Below are positions 8,076 through 17,251 of a stretch of DNA of 45,125 nucleotides, in pieces. The notes under the pieces were generated by a model. That model ran no database searches. It had not been told where the DNA came from and saw only the letters and a list, made by a program, of their open reading frames with translations. A program made the position numbers and the translations under genes. The DNA is from a virus (taxonomy: Duplodnaviria > Heunggongvirae > Uroviricota > Caudoviricetes): IMG/VR virus record IMGVR_UViG_2703718832_000003; one strand, given 5' to 3'. The number at the start of each line of letters is the position of its first letter. Within the stretch, counting starts at the first letter, position 1.

Positions 8076-8765
8076 TTAGAAATAACCACTGTCTTTGCAG
8101 ACGGATAGCGTTGACAGGGTCTCGGCATCATCTCCGCCCATACCAATAAAGCCAGCGTGAGGTTTGCCATTGTTGATAAGCATGACCATGAAAGGAGTGT
8201 TTCCAGCATAGCCGCCATATGAGTTTTTGGAATTAACCAGGCCGCAGTAAGCGCCTTTCCCGTTGCTCACAAACTTAGAGTGCTTGAATCTGGCACTTTC
8301 TGGATCCTTCAATTGGTCTTTCACTGCTGCCTCAACAGCATTTATCTCCTGCTTCGTGAGAGACCTATATTTCCAGGCAGTTGCCGGTTTGTCGTTATCT
8401 GAATTGTTCGGCGATGGACTAACATCAATGCAGTTGGCCCATTGCTCAGTAATTCGAGCAATTCGGTCAGAGATAGCGAAATCAGTTTTAGAAAGGCTTG
8501 CCGCGAACACTTTTGTCTTGTCGTCAAGAAAAAGCATTCCATTTTTTTGTTCACTGATTATTGGTGAAATGATCACACCACCATTTGGACGTGTGGCTTT
8601 AAAGGATTTTCCATCAAATTCGACAGTGCCTTTTCCGCCAGGAATCATTGGAGCATTAGCTCCATTACTGATGTCCGACTTAGCGTAATCGCAGCTCAGG
8701 GTGCTAGAGCCGATTGCGTTCGTAGTTAAAGCCAGTAAAGATAATGCTATTAGTTCTAATTTCAT
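8076..8765 (-). CDS. Secreted/periplasmic protein of unknown function in the rex position (lysogenic-conversion or exclusion candidate)
   Basis: 229-aa ORF with an N-terminal signal peptide (MKLELIALSLLALTTNAIG...) and four Cys; starts 14 nt after the cI stop with a GAGGGAAGG RBS, so co-transcribed with cI; followed by a terminator; appears lower in G+C than its neighbours by eye. Confidence 0.6.
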   Translation of the reverse strand: MKLELIALSLLALTTNAIGSSTLSCDYAKSDISNGANAPMIPGGKGTVEFDGKSFKATRPNGGVIISPIISEQKNGMLFLDDKTKVFAASLSKTDFAISDRIARITEQWANCIDVSPSPNNSDNDKPATAWKYRSLTKQEINAVEAAVKDQLKDPESARFKHSKFVSNGKGAYCGLVNSKNSYGGYAGNTPFMVMLINNGKPHAGFIGMGGDDAETLSTLSVCKDSGYF

Positions 8766-10394: not shown

Positions 10395-10630
10395 TGGGAA
10401 GTTTCAAAAATGGCGAAAGCCAGTCTGCGCGAACAGAACTGGCCTTCAGATGCAAATCGTGTGCACTCATTGCAGGAGGAATAATGGCAAAAAATCCACG
10501 CTATTACCATACCGCTGTACATAAAAACATAACCCGCGACCGCTTCATCCGCTCGGTTAACCCGATTGTGGCAGAGAAGATGCGCGCCATCCTGGAAGAA
10601 CTGAAACGTAAGGAGAGTGGCCGTGGGTAA
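10391..10630 (+). CDS. Hypothetical small protein (possibly only 48 aa from the internal start at 10487)
   Basis: 79-aa track ORF; internal ATG at 10487 has a strong AGGAGGA RBS (MAKNPRYYHTAVHKN...), so the shorter product may be the real one. Confidence 0.3.
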   Translation: MMGSFKNGESQSARTELAFRCKSCALIAGGIMAKNPRYYHTAVHKNITRDRFIRSVNPIVAEKMRAILEELKRKESGRG

Positions 10631-11522
10631 CGTATCCAATTTAGCCGAAGCCAGAGAGGCCAGAAGGCTCCAGAAACCGCGCACGAATGACGGTAAGGGG
10701 TTTGCCTTGCTGCACCGTAAAATTATGGATGTGCCGTTCTACAAGGACGCTGAGGCGGCTCATTTATGGGTTCACCTGCTCCTGCGCGCTAATCATGAAC
10801 AGACACTGGTATCGACTGATGTCGGCGATGTGATCTGCGAGCGCGGAGAGTTCATTACCGGGCGAAACACGCTGGCAATGGAAACGGGTTTGACCGCTGA
10901 TCGCGTTAAATCACTGCTCCGTAAATTCCAGAACCTGGGCATGATCACCACCAAATCGAACAACCGTTTTACTGTTCTAAAAGTGGTCAAATATGACGAA
11001 TATCAGTCAAATTTTTGTCCAGCCGATGTCCAGCCGGTGTCCAGCGCAAACGCAGTTATATCAATGCCTGTGGATGTGGAGTGTCCAGCCGATGTCCAGC
11101 CAGTGTCCACAGATAACAATATATTAAATAACTTACTACCTAACGGTAGTAAGTATGTCGCAAATGACCAGAAACCCGCTGAAGAGAAAAAGTCTCGTTT
11201 GTCATGCGATGAAGTGTGGCAATGCCTGAAAGACGAACTGCCTGAAGCCAGGGGATGGAGATGCCTCACTGATGAGCGACGCAATCTGATCCGCACATTC
11301 TGGGGTAAGGCTAACAAAATTGCCCGCAACCTGGACGGCAAGCCGATGGACATGGACGGTTTCAGAAGTTATCTGCGTTACATCGCTCAGAACTGCCGAT
11401 GGATGCTTGAAGACCGACCAGACCAGAAATACGGGAAGACCTGGCGCCGCATGAAATTCGATAAGTTCCTGACCGAAAAGCTCTACATCGAAGTGCGCGA
11501 GGGGGATCGTGATGACCGCTGA
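10617..11522 (+). CDS. Replication initiation protein (lambda O-like) with embedded origin
   Basis: 301-aa ORF directly upstream of the DnaB-type helicase; contains the iteron array and AT-rich tract within its coding sequence, as lambda O contains ori-lambda. Confidence 0.6.
   Translation: MAVGNVSNLAEAREARRLQKPRTNDGKGFALLHRKIMDVPFYKDAEAAHLWVHLLLRANHEQTLVSTDVGDVICERGEFITGRNTLAMETGLTADRVKSLLRKFQNLGMITTKSNNRFTVLKVVKYDEYQSNFCPADVQPVSSANAVISMPVDVECPADVQPVSTDNNILNNLLPNGSKYVANDQKPAEEKKSRLSCDEVWQCLKDELPEARGWRCLTDERRNLIRTFWGKANKIARNLDGKPMDMDGFRSYLRYIAQNCRWMLEDRPDQKYGKTWRRMKFDKFLTEKLYIEVREGDRDDR
11016..11153. repeat. Phage origin of replication: six TGTCCAGCC iterons plus AT-rich tract and palindrome
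   Basis: Iterons at 11016, 11027, 11038 and 11082, 11093, 11104 (11-bp period); AT-rich ATAACAATATATTAAATAACTTA at 11111-11135; palindrome CTTACTACC-TAA-CGGTAGTAAG at 11132-11153. Confidence 0.55.
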
Positions 11523-12945
11523 TTTCATGGCCGTACCACAAAACCTCGAAGCAGAGCAGAGCGTTATCGGTGGCCTGCTGCTGGATGATGACAACAGCGA
11601 GCGAGTCCAGAAGGTTCTGGCGATGCTCAAGCCTGAGTCGTTTTACAGCCGACCTCACCAGCTGATCTTTGCCGAGATGCGCCAGATGTTCCGCGACAAC
11701 AAGCCAGTCGATGGCCTGACATTGTTCGACGCGCTCGAAGGCAAAGGGCTCGCGGAGCAGGTAGGTGGCTTTGCTTACCTGGCGGAGATCGCCAAGAACA
11801 CTCCCAGCGCTGCAAACATCGTGGCATACGCTGCGTCAGTCCGGGAAGCCGCAATGGAGCGCTACGGTATCAGCCGCCTGACCGAAGCTACTGAGCTGCT
11901 GTATTCCCGCAATGGCATGAGCGCCACGCAGAAGTACGAGGCCATTCAGGGTATTTTCACCCAGCTCGCAGACCATTCAAAAACCGGTAGTCGCCGTGGG
12001 TTGCGGTCGTTCGGCGAGGTTATGGATGACTGGGTGGCAGATCTGGAGAAACGCTTTGACCCTTCAGGCGAACAGCGCGGCATGAGCACCGGCATCCCGT
12101 CACTCGACCGGCTGCTGGCGCCGAAAGGTCTGGTTAAAGGCTCTCTGTTCGTGATTGGCGCAAGGCCAAAGATGGGCAAGACAACCCTGTACGGTCAGAT
12201 GGCGATCAACTGCGCGGTTCGTGAGAAAAAGCCAGCGCTGATGTTCAGCCTCGAAATGCCGGGCGACCAGATCCTCGAAAAACTGGTTGGTCAGAAGTCT
12301 GGAGTTAACCCGAGCATTTTTTACATGCCAGCCACGGATGACGCCGATGGCCAGTACCAGGGCGATTACGACGGCGACTTTAAGAAGGCGATCGCCACCG
12401 CCGGGCGATTGAGTGAAATCGACATGCTGTACATCGACGATACTCCTGGCCTGTCACTGGCGCACATCGTTAGCGAAAGCCGCCGAATCAAGCGCGAGAA
12501 GGGCTGCGTAGGAATGATTCTGGTTGACTACCTGACTCTAATGACCGCCGAAAAAGCCGACCGTAATGACCTGGCCTACGGGATGATCACCAAAGGTCTG
12601 AAGAATCTCGCCAAAGAGCTTGGCTGCGTCGTCGTGCTGCTGACCCAGCTCAACCGCGAACTGGAGAAGCGAGTGAATAAACGCCCGTTGCCGAGCGATT
12701 CCCGCGACACAGGGCAGATTGAGCAGGACTGCGACTACTGGGTTGGTATCCACCGGGAAGGTGCTTTCGATGACAGCGTGCCGCCGGAAGAAACCGAGTT
12801 AATACTGCGACTCAACCGCCACGGCAGTACCGGAACGGTTTATTGCAATCAGAACAACGGGGCAATTTACGACACAGACCAGCAGGCCGCCGCCGCAGAA
12901 CGCCGCGGGCGTGAGCAGCAGCCGAAAAAGAAAGGGGGGTTCTGA
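11509..12945 (+). CDS. DnaB-family replicative helicase
   Basis: 478-aa ORF; Walker A GARPKMGKTTL, Walker B-like ILVDYL, DnaB-like N-terminal domain; stop overlaps the next start. Confidence 0.85.
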   Translation: MMTADFMAVPQNLEAEQSVIGGLLLDDDNSERVQKVLAMLKPESFYSRPHQLIFAEMRQMFRDNKPVDGLTLFDALEGKGLAEQVGGFAYLAEIAKNTPSAANIVAYAASVREAAMERYGISRLTEATELLYSRNGMSATQKYEAIQGIFTQLADHSKTGSRRGLRSFGEVMDDWVADLEKRFDPSGEQRGMSTGIPSLDRLLAPKGLVKGSLFVIGARPKMGKTTLYGQMAINCAVREKKPALMFSLEMPGDQILEKLVGQKSGVNPSIFYMPATDDADGQYQGDYDGDFKKAIATAGRLSEIDMLYIDDTPGLSLAHIVSESRRIKREKGCVGMILVDYLTLMTAEKADRNDLAYGMITKGLKNLAKELGCVVVLLTQLNRELEKRVNKRPLPSDSRDTGQIEQDCDYWVGIHREGAFDDSVPPEETELILRLNRHGSTGTVYCNQNNGAIYDTDQQAAAAERRGREQQPKKKGGF

Positions 12946-13289
12946 TGACCATAACAATTCGTGGGCAGATTCTTGCAGCCCTGCGTAATAACCCGGGCCT
13001 GAACAGTGCTCGTATTGCCAGCATGATCGGCATGACCACCAAAAAGATATCCAGAACGGTGAGCACGCTGCTGGCAGACGGCTTGATCGAGTTCGAAGGC
13101 AAGCACGGACAGCGGCTTTATCGGCTGACCGATTACGGCATGAAATACGCACCAGAAACAATCCCGGCTATGCCGAAGGGAAATTCGAAGCTGGTGCAGC
13201 GTACAGAGGCAAACGTGATCTGCCAGGAGTGCCGCAACAGCGCGGCGATGAAGCGAGTATTGATGGTTTGGGGGAGGGCAGGGGTATGA
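12945..13289 (+). CDS. Hypothetical protein, winged-helix-like
   Basis: 114-aa ORF translationally coupled to the helicase (TGATGA overlap); MarR/wHTH-like pattern. Confidence 0.4.
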   Translation: MTITIRGQILAALRNNPGLNSARIASMIGMTTKKISRTVSTLLADGLIEFEGKHGQRLYRLTDYGMKYAPETIPAMPKGNSKLVQRTEANVICQECRNSAAMKRVLMVWGRAGV

Positions 13290-13741
13290 AATTATTTGAG
13301 ATGGAAGGTTTTCTGCGTGGCAAGTGCATTCCACGAGATTTAAAGGTTAACGAAACAAACGCTGAATATCTTGTCCGTAAGTTCGGTGAACTTGAATCAA
13401 AACTAGAAACGGCGTTGCGGGAGTGTCGTTCTGCTGGAATCACGATTGATAACCTTGAGGCCAAGTGCGCGGCGCTGGCTGCGGAGAATGCGGGGCTGAA
13501 GGCTGTGGAGTCTAACCTGGTGAGAAACATAATTAACGACCTTGGCGATACGGAATTCCAATACGAAAAAGTCAAAACCCCAGCCACCGATGCTTTTCTG
13601 GCTGAAGTGCGGGCGCAGGGTGTGGATTCAGCGATTAACACAGTCATTGCGATGATGAACCATCAGCATCCTGTCACATCGAAGGCAATCGACATAATGC
13701 GCGTCCATGCCTACCAAATTCGCAAAGGAGTGCAGTCATGA
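13286..13741 (+). CDS. Hypothetical coiled-coil protein
   Basis: ATG at 13286 with G-rich RBS, in frame with track ORF 13229-13741; stop overlaps the next start. Confidence 0.4.
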   Translation: MKLFEMEGFLRGKCIPRDLKVNETNAEYLVRKFGELESKLETALRECRSAGITIDNLEAKCAALAAENAGLKAVESNLVRNIINDLGDTEFQYEKVKTPATDAFLAEVRAQGVDSAINTVIAMMNHQHPVTSKAIDIMRVHAYQIRKGVQS

Positions 13742-14010
13742 GAAAATCATACATCGTTATTCAGCAGTACTGGTGGTGCAACGAGAAAGGCCATGGAGTT
13801 GAATACACGACAGACGGCGTTGACTTCGATAAGCGCGATAAGGCAATCAAGCATGGTCTGAAAACACAAGGTAGTGATGATTTCAACATCGGCGTTATCG
13901 AAGGCGGTAAGCTTGTTTCCTTCGACTGGATGAATGAGCCAGTGGGTGAAAGTGCAGAGACACTTGCTGAAATTGCAGAAGCCATCGGTTACGAAGGAAC
14001 CGCCCAATGA
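13738..14010 (+). CDS. Hypothetical protein
   Basis: 90-aa ORF with ATGA start/stop overlaps on both sides. Confidence 0.4.
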   Translation: MRKSYIVIQQYWWCNEKGHGVEYTTDGVDFDKRDKAIKHGLKTQGSDDFNIGVIEGGKLVSFDWMNEPVGESAETLAEIAEAIGYEGTAQ

Positions 14011-14612
14011 GCAACATCGACAAACAGGCGCTGCGTGAAATCGCAGCGGCAGCAGTTGGCGCACATGAGCGCCTTAGTGTTATGCCGCCTGATGACATTT
14101 TCGATATCTCACTGGCAGAAGGAACTCAGCTTGATGCAGATATCACTGCCTTGAACGCGCTGAACTCCGCAGCAAACCCCACTACCGTCTTGGCGCTGCT
14201 GGATGAGCTGGAGAAGATGCAGGCGCAATCGTCAAAATGGTGCGAAGCCTTCCATAAAGCCGTTTCCGTTGGCGCTCGGTATGAGGAGCGGATTGCTGAA
14301 CTGGAAGCGCGTGCATTCAATCCTGCAATTCTGGATGTGATAGCAGAGCGCCAGCGGCAACAATCGGTTGAGGGGTGGATGCCAGAGCATGATGACGAAC
14401 ACTGCAACGGGGAACTGGCAATGGCGGCGGTTTGTTACATAAACGAAACAGGAACTGTTAACCGCAATGGTGGCAAGCCGTGGGGGTGGCCTTGGGATGC
14501 TTCATGGTGGAAGCCAAATGCCCGCCGTCGCAACCTGGTAAAAGCAGGGGCTTTAATTCTGGCTGAAATCGAACGCATAGACCGCGCCGCTGGCATCGGT
14601 AAGGGGGAGTGA
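14007..14612 (+). CDS. Hypothetical protein (Ea22-like N-terminus / DUF550-like C-terminus, tentative)
   Basis: 201-aa ORF; C-terminal segment ...GKPWGWPWDASWWKPNARRRNLVKAGALILAEIERIDR resembles a phage domain of unknown function, from memory only. Confidence 0.35.
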   Translation: MSNIDKQALREIAAAAVGAHERLSVMPPDDIFDISLAEGTQLDADITALNALNSAANPTTVLALLDELEKMQAQSSKWCEAFHKAVSVGARYEERIAELEARAFNPAILDVIAERQRQQSVEGWMPEHDDEHCNGELAMAAVCYINETGTVNRNGGKPWGWPWDASWWKPNARRRNLVKAGALILAEIERIDRAAGIGKGE

Positions 14613-15043
14613 TGCTTCAACATCAAATGCAGCCAACATTTAACACCTGCATGGCTACCTGCGTTGCAATGGTTGCCGGTCAACCTGTCGATGAGGTAGT
14701 GGAACGCTGGCATCAGAAATTCCACGACAAAACAGACTGGCTCGACGACGCGCTGGATTATTACAAAATCCCGTATTTTTACGGAAGCCAGCGCAAGGCC
14801 GAATTGCTTTACGGGTTTATTTACTTCCTGACCGTTCCGTCACTGAACATCAAAGGCGGCCTGCATCAGATTCTGATGTCGTTAACGGCAGAACGCGGCA
14901 TAGAAGTATTTGACCCGGCAATGGGTCGGCCAGGATCAAAATATTACGTTTGGGGTGAAGCGCAGAACGATGATCAATTCGGCGTTATCTCCTGGTGCGT
15001 CGATTTATCGGTTCCGGTAGTGCAACAGAAAGGTGAGGACTAA
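14609..15043 (+). CDS. Hypothetical protein, possibly papain/C39-like cysteine peptidase fold
   Basis: 144-aa ORF; N-terminal Q...C motif (QPTFNTCMATCVAMVAG) reminiscent of a C39-like active site; very tentative. Confidence 0.35.
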   Translation: MMLQHQMQPTFNTCMATCVAMVAGQPVDEVVERWHQKFHDKTDWLDDALDYYKIPYFYGSQRKAELLYGFIYFLTVPSLNIKGGLHQILMSLTAERGIEVFDPAMGRPGSKYYVWGEAQNDDQFGVISWCVDLSVPVVQQKGED

Positions 15044-15046
15044 CCC

Positions 15047-15840
15047 ATGAGCACTATTACCAAAGAACGTATTGAATTGTTCATTAAAAATCCGCTTGAA
15101 AACGTGCTTACCCGTGGTGAACAAATGGAACTGGCACGGATTGCGCTGGCATCGCTCGAAGCGGAGCCGGTGGCGTGGTTGCTGTCAGGAGGCGGGGAAA
15201 AAAACAACGTCAGCTTCGATAGTGGCAATGCTTATGCCGACCCGCTGCGAGAAGTAACGCCGCTTTACGCCTCCCCGCCAGCGCCGGTATCTGTGCCTGA
15301 TTTGAAACCAGTTGGCTTTTTATTCGTGTCCGATGATGGCTCAGTTGCTTATTCTCCTGCTGGCTGGCCCATGAAAGGATTTAATCTAATCGGTCCGATT
15401 TACGGTGATGTGAACGCCTGCCGCGCCGCCATGCTTCAGTCCGATGGTACCCTCACCAATGAAGGTACCATGCAGTTGTCCGGTAATTCCGAACAAATCG
15501 AACCCGTAAGTAATCGTGATGAGTTGCCGTTGGACTATCTGCAAGGTCACAAAGACGGCCTTGAATGGGCGGCGCAACTGGCAGAGGCCAATCATCCGCA
15601 AACAGGTGACTGGTTATACGACGACCCAATCGATCTTGCCAGGGCGATTCGCAAAGGTCCGGATATGCCTACTGTTCAGGCTGGCAACTCTCCGGTAACT
15701 CCGGATGGTTGGATTCCGGTAAGCAAAAGGATGCCGGAGCCTTATGAATACGTTCTTGTAACTGATGGTTTTGATGGCTGTGAGGTTATGCGTGTTAATA
15801 CAGATGGCTACTGGGGGCCGACAAAGAGTTTATATCCAGG
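15047..15840 (+). CDS. Hypothetical protein, 3' end lost in the N-run
   Basis: ORF starts at 15047 and runs into the N-run at 15841; true length and C-terminus unknown. Confidence 0.4.
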
Positions 15841-16051
15841 TNNNNNNNNNNNNNNNNNNNNNNNNNNNNNNNNNNNNNNNNNNNNNNNNNNNNNNNNNNN
15901 NNNNNNNNNNNNNNNNNNNNNNNNNNNNNNNNNNNNNNNNNNNNNNNNNNNNNNNNNNNNNNNNNNNNNNNNNNNNNNNNNNNNNNNNNNNNNNNNNNNN
16001 NNNNNNNNNNNNNNNNNNNNNNNNNNNNNNNNNNNNNNNNNNNNNNNNNNN
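15841..16051. other. Run of 211 N (assembly gap or masked sequence)
   Basis: Continuous n characters in the sequence; not biological. Confidence 0.95.
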
Positions 16052-16360
16052 ACGTTACAGAAATACCAGCCTTCCCTGAAGTACTAATTGCAAATGTATT
16101 TTGTGAATCATCCCGGCGGGTAGAGATTTATAAACCAGCATCAAGACACCAATGGCCTCTTCGAAAGCCTTTCTCTTATGTTGATTTTCCATAATCAACC
16201 AGCCATAATTTAACCGTCGTCGGAGTTGAACGCCCGACGGTGACTTCTGCGCATTTAAGGGGACTTAAATGCGACCACAATCTGAACTCCTCACCTTGTC
16301 ACAGATGCAGAAATGCACCTGCGATTTTCTGTATTCTGCGTTACCTCTCGGAGGTGGCGT

Positions 16361-16798
16361 ATGAAACAGCCTGTTTTCTACCTCCGCGACGAACGCGTTC
16401 GCGATAACCTCATCGACTACATCAGGAAGCTGCCTGTTAACGACGCTCTGCCGCTCGTGGTGAAGTTTTCTGAGGCTGACCGCACTCTCGCCCAAAACGA
16501 CCTCTTCCACGCTCTCTGTGGCGATACAGCGAAGCAATTGCAATGGGCTGGCAAGTCGCGCGACCTCGCTTCATGGAAAGTCCTGTATGTCTCAGGCCAT
16601 GCCATTGCCACCGGTAAGCCTGGTGAAGTGGTGCCGGGTCTGGAAGGGGAGTTCTGCGCCATCCGGGAAAGCACTGCGAAGATGGGCATCCGTCGCATGA
16701 CCAGTCTCATCGAATACAGCCAGGCATTTGCTGTGCAAAACGGCGTGCAACTCCGTGAAGTTCGCTACTCAGGTGATTACTTCGGGAGGGTTGCGTAA
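16361..16798 (+). CDS. ninB: NinB (Orf-family recombination mediator)
   Basis: ATG at 16361 with GGAGGTGG RBS, in frame with track ORF 16313-16798; sequence MKQPVFYLRDERVRDN...LAQNDLFHALCGD parallels lambda NinB. Confidence 0.75.
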   Translation: MKQPVFYLRDERVRDNLIDYIRKLPVNDALPLVVKFSEADRTLAQNDLFHALCGDTAKQLQWAGKSRDLASWKVLYVSGHAIATGKPGEVVPGLEGEFCAIRESTAKMGIRRMTSLIEYSQAFAVQNGVQLREVRYSGDYFGRVA

Positions 16799-16968
16799 TG
16801 GCTAGCCCTCTCGCTCGCATCATCACCAACGAAATCTACCGGGTCCGGACACGCACTAAGCGCAAGCCTGAACTCAAGCCATCCGAAATCCCATCACTGC
16901 TCGGCTACACCGCGCGACTGACCCAGGTGAAATGGGATCGCCTGAAAGCGCGGAGGTCACATGGCTAA
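16798..16968 (+). CDS. NinE-like small basic protein (56 aa)
   Basis: Not in the track (under 60 aa). Starts at the TAATG overlap with the ninB stop; basic segment ...RTKRKPELKPSEIP...WDRLKARR resembles lambda NinE from memory. Confidence 0.4.
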   Translation: MASPLARIITNEIYRVRTRTKRKPELKPSEIPSLLGYTARLTQVKWDRLKARRSHG

Positions 16969-17251
16969 TTTATGCAAAGCGGCACGCGGCCGCGATTGTC
17001 AGGTGCGGATCCCCGGCGTATGCAACGGCAATCCTGAAACCTCAGTACTGGCTCACATACGTCTTGCTGGTCTATGCGGGACCGGAATAAAGCCGCCTGA
17101 CCTGATCGCCACCATCGCATGCAGCAGTTGCCACGACGAGATTGATCGCCGCACCCGTCTGGTCGATGCGGAATTTGCAAAGGAGTGCGCGCTGGAAGGC
17201 ATGGCTCGCACGCAGGTCATCTGGCTTAAAGAGGGGCTCGTGAAAGCATGA
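16961..17251 (+). CDS. Cys-rich nin-region protein (DUF1364-like, tentative)
   Basis: 96-aa ORF with [11 protein letters not shown]...CSSCHDEID cysteine pattern, between ninE-like and rusA. Confidence 0.4.

Follow-up and report, generated by a model that had tools for sequence, protein, structure and literature searches.

In bacteriophage lambda, the replication gene P is followed by ren, a spacer of only 73 nt and ninB. The Ea22 family of lambda sits in the exo-xis region, and Ea22 itself is a pro-lysogenic developmental factor (PMC10834534, PMC7093339) that combines a shared N-terminal and coiled-coil part with exchangeable C-terminal domains (PMC10834534). DUF551 is a portable domain of unknown function (PMC10834534, PMC4776307). 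C39 peptidase domains are described from ATP-binding cassette (ABC) exporters such as ComA, CvaB, PCAT1 and LahT, in which they are linked to a transporter. Here, we describe a block of six accessory genes (g1 to g6) in the IMG/VR virus record IMGVR_UViG_2703718832_000003, a stretch of 45,125 nt that is referred to below as the window and whose numbering is used throughout. The block is an ordinary, highly shuffled accessory slot that separates the replication genes from ninB in a lambda/Rac-like Escherichia coli prophage. As in lambda, the replication genes are immediately followed by a ren-type gene (g1), and a structured spacer lies ahead of ninB; the differences are that replication involves a DnaB-like helicase in place of P, and that five extra genes (approximately 2.6 kb or more) are inserted between ren and ninB. 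We regard as highly probable the whole account set out below, in which this slot holds a Ren homologue and a set of portable modules, one of which (g5) encodes a candidate peptidase, and is interrupted by a true assembly gap.

The six genes lie consecutively on the + strand (12945-15841), directly after the DnaB-like helicase gene (11509-12945) and before NinB (ATG at 16361, + strand; PF05772, E = 5.5e-39). They are g1 (12945-13289; Ren homologue, 114 amino acids (aa)), g2 (13286-13741; EaE/Ea22-like, 151 aa), g3 (13738-14010; small conserved phage protein, 90 aa), g4 (14007-14612; Ead/Ea22-like, 201 aa), g5 (14612-15043; C39-like, papain-fold cysteine peptidase candidate, 143 aa) and g6 (15047-15841; mosaic DUF551-type, with the first 265 codons present before the gap). 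The initial annotation, made from the sequence alone, described six consecutive, translationally coupled open reading frames (ORFs); five of the six junctions do overlap, with TGATG at helicase/g1 and g4/g5 and ATGA at g1/g2, g2/g3 and g3/g4 (read from the sequence), whereas g5 and g6 are separated by 3 nt (TAA, 3 nt, ATG). The start of g2 was placed at ATG 13286, which gives the ATGA overlap, the automatic ORF list starting at GTG 13229; for g5, gene callers use ATG 14612, 5 nt after a AAGGGGGAG Shine-Dalgarno sequence, with GTG 14609 as the alternative. A 346-aa ORF reading across the run of N (15047-16087) was rejected as an artefact of translating N. Given the head-to-tail packing and the stop/start overlaps, g1 to g6 would be co-transcribed with the replication genes and translationally coupled, presumably from the equivalent of the lambda early-right promoter pR. 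All six are, by sequence comparison, real genes and not chance ORFs, and none is an orphan, because each matched a PHROG family (E = 7e-30 to 3e-81) and exact or near-exact copies of the block genes are present on many contigs. The view that none of the six has a confident function was not upheld, as g1 is a Ren homologue, g4 passes the Ead_Ea22 threshold and g6 is of DUF551 type. The initial annotation had named profile assignment of all six products to ordinary families as a result that would overturn its reading, and this came about by half: all six fall in known phage families, and five of these are of unknown biochemistry.

Sequence comparison identifies g1 as a homologue of lambda Ren in ren's own position. 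It matched phrog_142, 'Ren-like exclusion protein' (E = 7e-30), and was 28% identical to lambda Ren over nearly the full length by BLASTP (E = 2e-10). The C-terminal motif of g1, ECRxSAAMKRVLxVxG, includes the stretch ECRxSAAMKRVL that is common to lambda Ren, and the N-terminal part is of winged-helix type (Pfam HTH_24, 1.7e-7; MarR_2, 1.6e-6); names given to g1 by NCBI include 'Ren protein' and 'wHTH transcriptional regulator'.

The five genes that follow are mosaic accessory genes of the 'ea' type, and recombination also occurs within each of them. g4 resembles lambda Ea22 in that an N-terminal part (residues 2-100; 14010-14306), which scored 64.9 bits with Pfam PF13935 Ead_Ea22 (E = 1.5e-17; cutoff 27), is joined to a distinct C-terminal domain (residues 93-199; 14283-14603), although it lies on the nin side, whereas the lambda family sits in the exo-xis region. 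The Trp-rich C-terminal domain pointed out in the initial annotation proved to be a distinct domain, with six Trp in 109 aa. It matched the C-termini of approximately nine other PHROGs, has 1,760 homologues and occurs as a stand-alone protein (approximately 95-130 aa) in Pseudomonas (B3), Rhodobacter and Nostoc phages, with approximately 95 aa conserved around the motif DV..ER.RQ…EGW..HDD.H..GELA.AA.CY…WPW…WWKP..RR.LVKAGALILAEIER.DR. No Pfam, NCBIfam or PDB match was found for this domain, even with distant homologues, and it differs from the C-terminal domain of lambda Ea22, as it matched none of the solved chains, including the nuclear magnetic resonance structure of that domain. The g4 C-terminus is thus, in addition to g5, a second conserved and widespread phage domain, and it is matched by no Pfam model. 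g2 matched phrog_614 (E = 9e-49) and shares phrog_14548 and phrog_368 with g4; it has no significant Pfam match, only weak matches to coiled-coil-type models (ZapB, bZIP), and its relatives in HK639 and HK225 are annotated as 'eae-like' or 'similar to P22 EaE'. The exact g2 sequence is the sole member of its 90% identity cluster and is present on eight contigs. g3 matched phrog_26897 over its full length (E = 9e-59) and had no match in Pfam, NCBIfam, PADLOC or PDB beyond a weak PADLOC similarity. Many NCBI and UniProt records call it 'antitoxin', whereas others list it as 'hypothetical'; the name 'antitoxin' was not adopted here, as no Pfam, NCBIfam or PADLOC model supports it.

g6 matched phrog_60 (E = 3e-45). 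Behind a common N-terminal leader, it has a conserved central part that leads into the beginning of a C-terminal DUF551 domain. Its match to Pfam DUF551 (PF04448; E = 6e-4, 21.0 bits) falls below the cutoff of 22, as the gap begins after the first ~20 positions of the profile; a relative with 97.8% identity over g6 residues 221-265 carries the annotation DUF551 and has THWMPLP at its end. g6 resembles other DUF551 proteins, such as YfdS of the cryptic prophage CPS-53 and the Stx-phage Ea22 variant V2, in joining a modular N-terminal scaffold to DUF551, and differs from them in that the assembly gap truncates the domain here. When 16 versions of g6 were aligned, swapped segments and differing C-terminal domains became apparent. 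On these sequence comparisons, g4 and g6 fit the published modular pattern of Ea22 and DUF551 proteins. Across loci L001-L033, g6-type genes combine four or more exchangeable segments and end in DUF551, an unrelated acidic tail or another C-terminal domain. A match of the g6 middle part in phage Louie falls under a feature named 'Lar-like restriction alleviation protein'.

The same shuffling was seen at the level of the whole block. Parts of it matched 2,655 of 5,426 complete E. coli genomes and 384 phage records, and no complete E. coli genome or phage record covered at least 80% of it, the best covering 57%. Positions 13715-15712 (g3 to g6) are 99.3% identical in the nin region of a metagenomic prophage (L008) and 99.7% identical beside xis/int, in the 'ea' region, at a second locus (L016), and exact g4 is located beside xis/int in L009-L011 and L014-L016. 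Segments of the block recur in up to eight places per E. coli genome. From these comparisons, g1 to g6 are best described as independent portable modules that shuttle between two accessory regions of lambdoid/P22-like prophages, and not as one system. The variable accessory slot of a lambdoid prophage recognised in the initial annotation is therefore borne out, as a mosaic; in this respect the block confirms textbook lambdoid mosaicism and adds little.

A Gln...Cys motif reminiscent of papain or C39 peptidases had been noted in g5, and it is borne out by conservation and by a fold model. The g5 family corresponds to phrog_4049; an exhaustive profile search with g5 recovered 712 representative proteins at E ≤ 1e-3, so that the family comprises at least 712 clusters at 50% identity, and the close relatives (27 clusters) are all enterobacterial. 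In a family alignment of 94 relatives with 23-59% identity to g5, five columns alone are invariant, namely Gln7, Cys13, His85, Asp101 and Pro102 (numbering starts at ATG 14612). When scanned singly, 35 of the 94 relatives matched Pfam Peptidase_C39 (PF03412; best E = 2.4e-6), and a few matched C58, C39_2 or DUF3335; single-sequence Pfam, NCBIfam and PDB searches with g5 returned no match. An AlphaFold model of g5 built with the 94-sequence alignment reached a predicted local distance difference test score (pLDDT) of 95.5, an earlier AlphaFold2 run with a shallow alignment (pLDDT 56) having been discarded. The predicted fold is papain-like and closest to C39 domains; a helix begins at Cys13, a strand begins at His85, and Asp101 comes directly after the strand that follows. 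Comparison of the family profile with the CvaB N-terminus by hhalign gave a probability of 90.9 (E = 1.2e-6), and the Cys, His and Asp-Pro columns of the family fall on the positions taken here as the catalytic Cys, His and Asp of CvaB, with the Gln-x5-Cys spacing and the His...Asp-Pro motif aligned.

From the model and the conserved columns, g5 is a candidate cysteine peptidase of the C39/papain type, most likely active and cytoplasmic. Cys13 would be the nucleophile at the helix N-terminus and His85 the base, while Asp101 would orient His85 and the oxyanion hole would be provided by Gln7. If it behaves like C39 enzymes and related papain-fold hydrolases directed at Gly-Gly, g5 would act at an early stage of infection or induction and cleave a host or phage protein after small residues. 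It is not a strict member of the C39 family, because it lies below the Pfam threshold, it is a stand-alone protein with no ABC exporter, unlike the transporter-linked C39 domains, and no leader-peptide gene is adjacent. No double-glycine leader substrate was found beside g5, its neighbours being Ea22-like and DUF551 genes. The sequence LLSGGG in the g6 leader was considered as a substrate and rejected, as the GG is not conserved among the g6 versions that follow g5. Searches of the literature found no paper on the g5 family and nothing relevant on phage C39 or papain-like accessory proteases; a published study on phage proteases and the cyclic oligonucleotide-based antiphage signalling system (CBASS) was set aside, as it concerns prohead proteases. 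To our knowledge, phage proteases that are non-structural and expressed early are few, and little is understood about them. A very common prophage protein that carries no name other than 'hypothetical' is thus a member of an extensive phage family in which the C39/papain catalytic set is intact, and is a concrete candidate for seeking host or defence targets.

The identical 143-aa g5 protein is present on more than 1,000 contigs, the source names of which include E. coli and other Enterobacteriaceae, and members of its 90% identity cluster include Enterobacter and Raoultella by source name. Members of that cluster with 226-229 aa, named 'ead/Ea22-like', are g4-like and contain no g5 sequence; they were rejected as fusions and represent a clustering artefact. 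No sequenced phage isolate has a g5 copy above 60% identity. More distant relatives were found in 193 phage records, including Kuttervirus, Seuratvirus, and Vibrio, Pseudomonas and Erwinia phages; in unrelated phages such as Kuttervirus, Seuratvirus and Vibrio phages, they are single genes in early or DNA-metabolism regions. In the three neighbourhoods compared (Seurat, SeF6a and Vibrio H1), the relatives are stand-alone and share no common neighbour. In Kuttervirus, the relative is located between the genes of the two topoisomerase II subunits (for example in SeF6a, L019:2405-2935), and one Kuttervirus record labels it 'ABC-type bacteriocin transporter peptidase domain'; a topoisomerase II gene pair is an odd place for an accessory gene. 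In E. coli ABWA45 (CP022154.1, ~2.736-2.743 Mb; L031:816-5400), the g4 C-terminal domain and g5 are present as five perfect (100% identical) tandem copies with a period of 917 bp, which may reflect either a genuine amplification or an error of assembly.

The run of N that interrupts the block was reported in the initial annotation as 211 nt and measures 210 nt (15842-16051); that sequence is missing here was correct, as the 3′ end of g6 is cut. The gap is a real scaffold gap, because the deposited E. coli assembly already carries it: GCA_001575965.1 (LONS01000032.1; L012) is 100% identical on both sides and has the same N-run, and the corresponding NCBI protein records (KXP87078-KXP87080 and KXP87082) are from Escherichia coli. 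On the left side, positions 15640-15841 match a DUF551 gene of E. coli NT1F10 at 98.5% identity, and that gene runs 54 nt further (…SITHWMPLPAAPQQEVK, stop); on the right side, many E. coli genomes carry, upstream of ninB, unannotated DNA with 98% identity to positions 16061-16260. Comparison with E. coli genomes, phages and contig collections failed to close the gap: no place joining both flanks was found among the top hits listed for the 5,426 complete E. coli genomes, the 24-nt right-flank junction had no exact match in the genome, viral and metagenome contig collections, and a 39-nt right-flank query matched neither E. coli genomes nor phages. Judging from the near-identical relative, the gap most likely hides the final ~18 codons of g6, where DUF551 ends in THWMPLP, and, if its length is accurate, up to ~150 nt more. 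It would then hold mainly the 3′ end of a known gene, the other result that the initial annotation had named as overturning its reading. The gap probably arose from segments that recur in several prophages per genome. It is an ordinary scaffold gap that would cover mostly the end of a known gene, and may also hold a small extra gene.

Several points weigh against parts of this account. g5 itself reaches no Pfam or NCBIfam threshold and has no PF03412 match at E ≤ 1, and the match of its sequence profile to a double-glycine protease in PDB is not significant (E = 1.1). The putative active site is a prediction from conserved columns and from the place of these residues along the modelled helix and strands. 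The first 9-14 nt of the right flank of the gap (16052-16065) match nothing in any collection, so that the content of the gap is bounded only, and the co-transcription and coupling suggested for the block are read from gene spacing only. A papain fold could also serve a non-peptidase, and g5 might then be a deamidase, transglutaminase, acyltransferase, lyase, cell-wall amidase or toxin-like domain; this is unlikely, as the best sequence-profile and fold matches are consistently C39 peptidase domains the Gln-x5-Cys and His...Asp-Pro motifs align with those of CvaB, g5 lacks a signal peptide, and its gene is in the early region and not in the lysis cassette. Another reading starts from the observation that in nine of ten sampled places the g4 C-terminal domain is immediately upstream of exact g5 with a 1-nt overlap; together with the ABWA45 tandem, which repeats exactly this 917-bp unit, and the NCBI label 'antitoxin' for g3, this would suit a two-component unit, either a toxin-antitoxin or an enzyme-partner pair, formed by the g4 C-terminal domain and g5 (or by g3 and a neighbour). 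We consider such a unit highly improbable, because exact g4 occurs without g5 (L009-L011, L014 and L015) and g5 without the g4 C-terminal domain (L027), the two families are not adjacent in distant phages, no toxin-antitoxin or defence model matched, and the 'antitoxin' label is not backed by any model here. The pairing is instead read as common descent, and not as a functional couple.

The initial annotation had read the block as a place for anti-restriction and host-takeover genes. In its stronger form, the block would be an anti-restriction or anti-defence island in which members of g2 to g6 inactivate host immunity, with g5 as the effector protease, which could cleave a defence protein or remove a Gly-Gly-linked ubiquitin-like modification. 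Consistent with this are the membership of g1 in the Ren family, which is annotated as exclusion-related, the presence of Lar-like restriction-alleviation genes or domains in sister slots (PF14354 in L013 and L025; phage Louie), and the distribution of g5 relatives across unrelated temperate and virulent phages, as is often seen with counter-defence accessory genes. Direct support was not obtained: PADLOC returned a generic winged-helix similarity for g1, weak similarities for g2 and g3 (E = 0.005-0.03) and nothing for g4 to g6, and no specific PADLOC match or anti-defence family was found for g2 to g6, which is weak evidence, as PADLOC covers defence systems and no anti-defence library was searched. 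In addition, the g5 family has no published function that we could find, the only characterised relative of g2 and g4, lambda Ea22, is reported to be pro-lysogenic, as noted above, and position alone is weak evidence. An island of this kind is improbable, and for anti-defence activity of the block there is evidence neither for nor against. The narrower proposal that the g5 family (phrog_4049) is a counter-defence or host-takeover protease that cuts after small or Gly-Gly residues, or strips ubiquitin-like modifications from phage proteins, is more doubtful still; if true, g5 would be a phage analogue of the viral papain-like deubiquitinases. A last alternative concerns the extent of the block, which would exceed six genes if the gap hid a further gene, such as the reverse-strand moron of E. 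coli KL53. In its favour, the KL53 DNA with 98% identity to positions 16061-16260 lies immediately upstream of an AT-rich gene of 145 aa on the minus strand. In other relatives, the interval from the DUF551 gene to ninB contains one more + strand gene, of 80-111 aa, and the lengths of scaffold gaps are estimates. We nevertheless find a hidden gene somewhat unlikely, as a true length of 210 nt would leave only ~156 nt beyond the end of g6, and relatives L008 and L028 have nothing extra at this spot, running directly from a g6-type gene through a spacer of ~220 nt to ninB. The preferred reading remains a shuffled slot of six genes, the last of which is cut by the gap. The KL53 gene (L005:1996-2433) encodes a membrane protein with a hydrophobic N-terminus, lies between the DUF551 gene and ninB, and looks like a moron. 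A minus-strand ORF of 47 codons is present at 16055-16198, within the 98% conserved, unannotated E. coli segment.

Between the gap and NinB lies a non-coding, structured spacer of 309 nt (16052-16360, + strand), which takes the place of the ren-ninB spacer of lambda. Positions 16200-16362 fold unusually well (RNA fold z = -3.58) and contain a hairpin equivalent to the 'IR4' annotated in phi80 (about 16218-16239), a second hairpin (16250-16273), a terminator-like hairpin followed by a U-rich run (16304-16335, with the hairpin at 16306-16323) and a hairpin that pairs the NinB Shine-Dalgarno sequence (16337-16361). An Rfam search of 12500-17000 returned no match. It is possible that these hairpins represent a tR2-like terminator and translational control elements.

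Elsewhere, ahead of the helicase gene, the window carries an integrase (1-1194), RecT, a RecE-like exonuclease, an S24 repressor, a YdaT-family protein and an O-like initiator (10617-11522). Directly downstream of the S24 repressor, on the same (minus) strand and in the position of lambda rexA/rexB, is a gene of 229 aa (8076-8765) that had no Pfam or PADLOC match and matched only PHROGs of unknown function; it could be an exclusion or defence gene expressed from the prophage.

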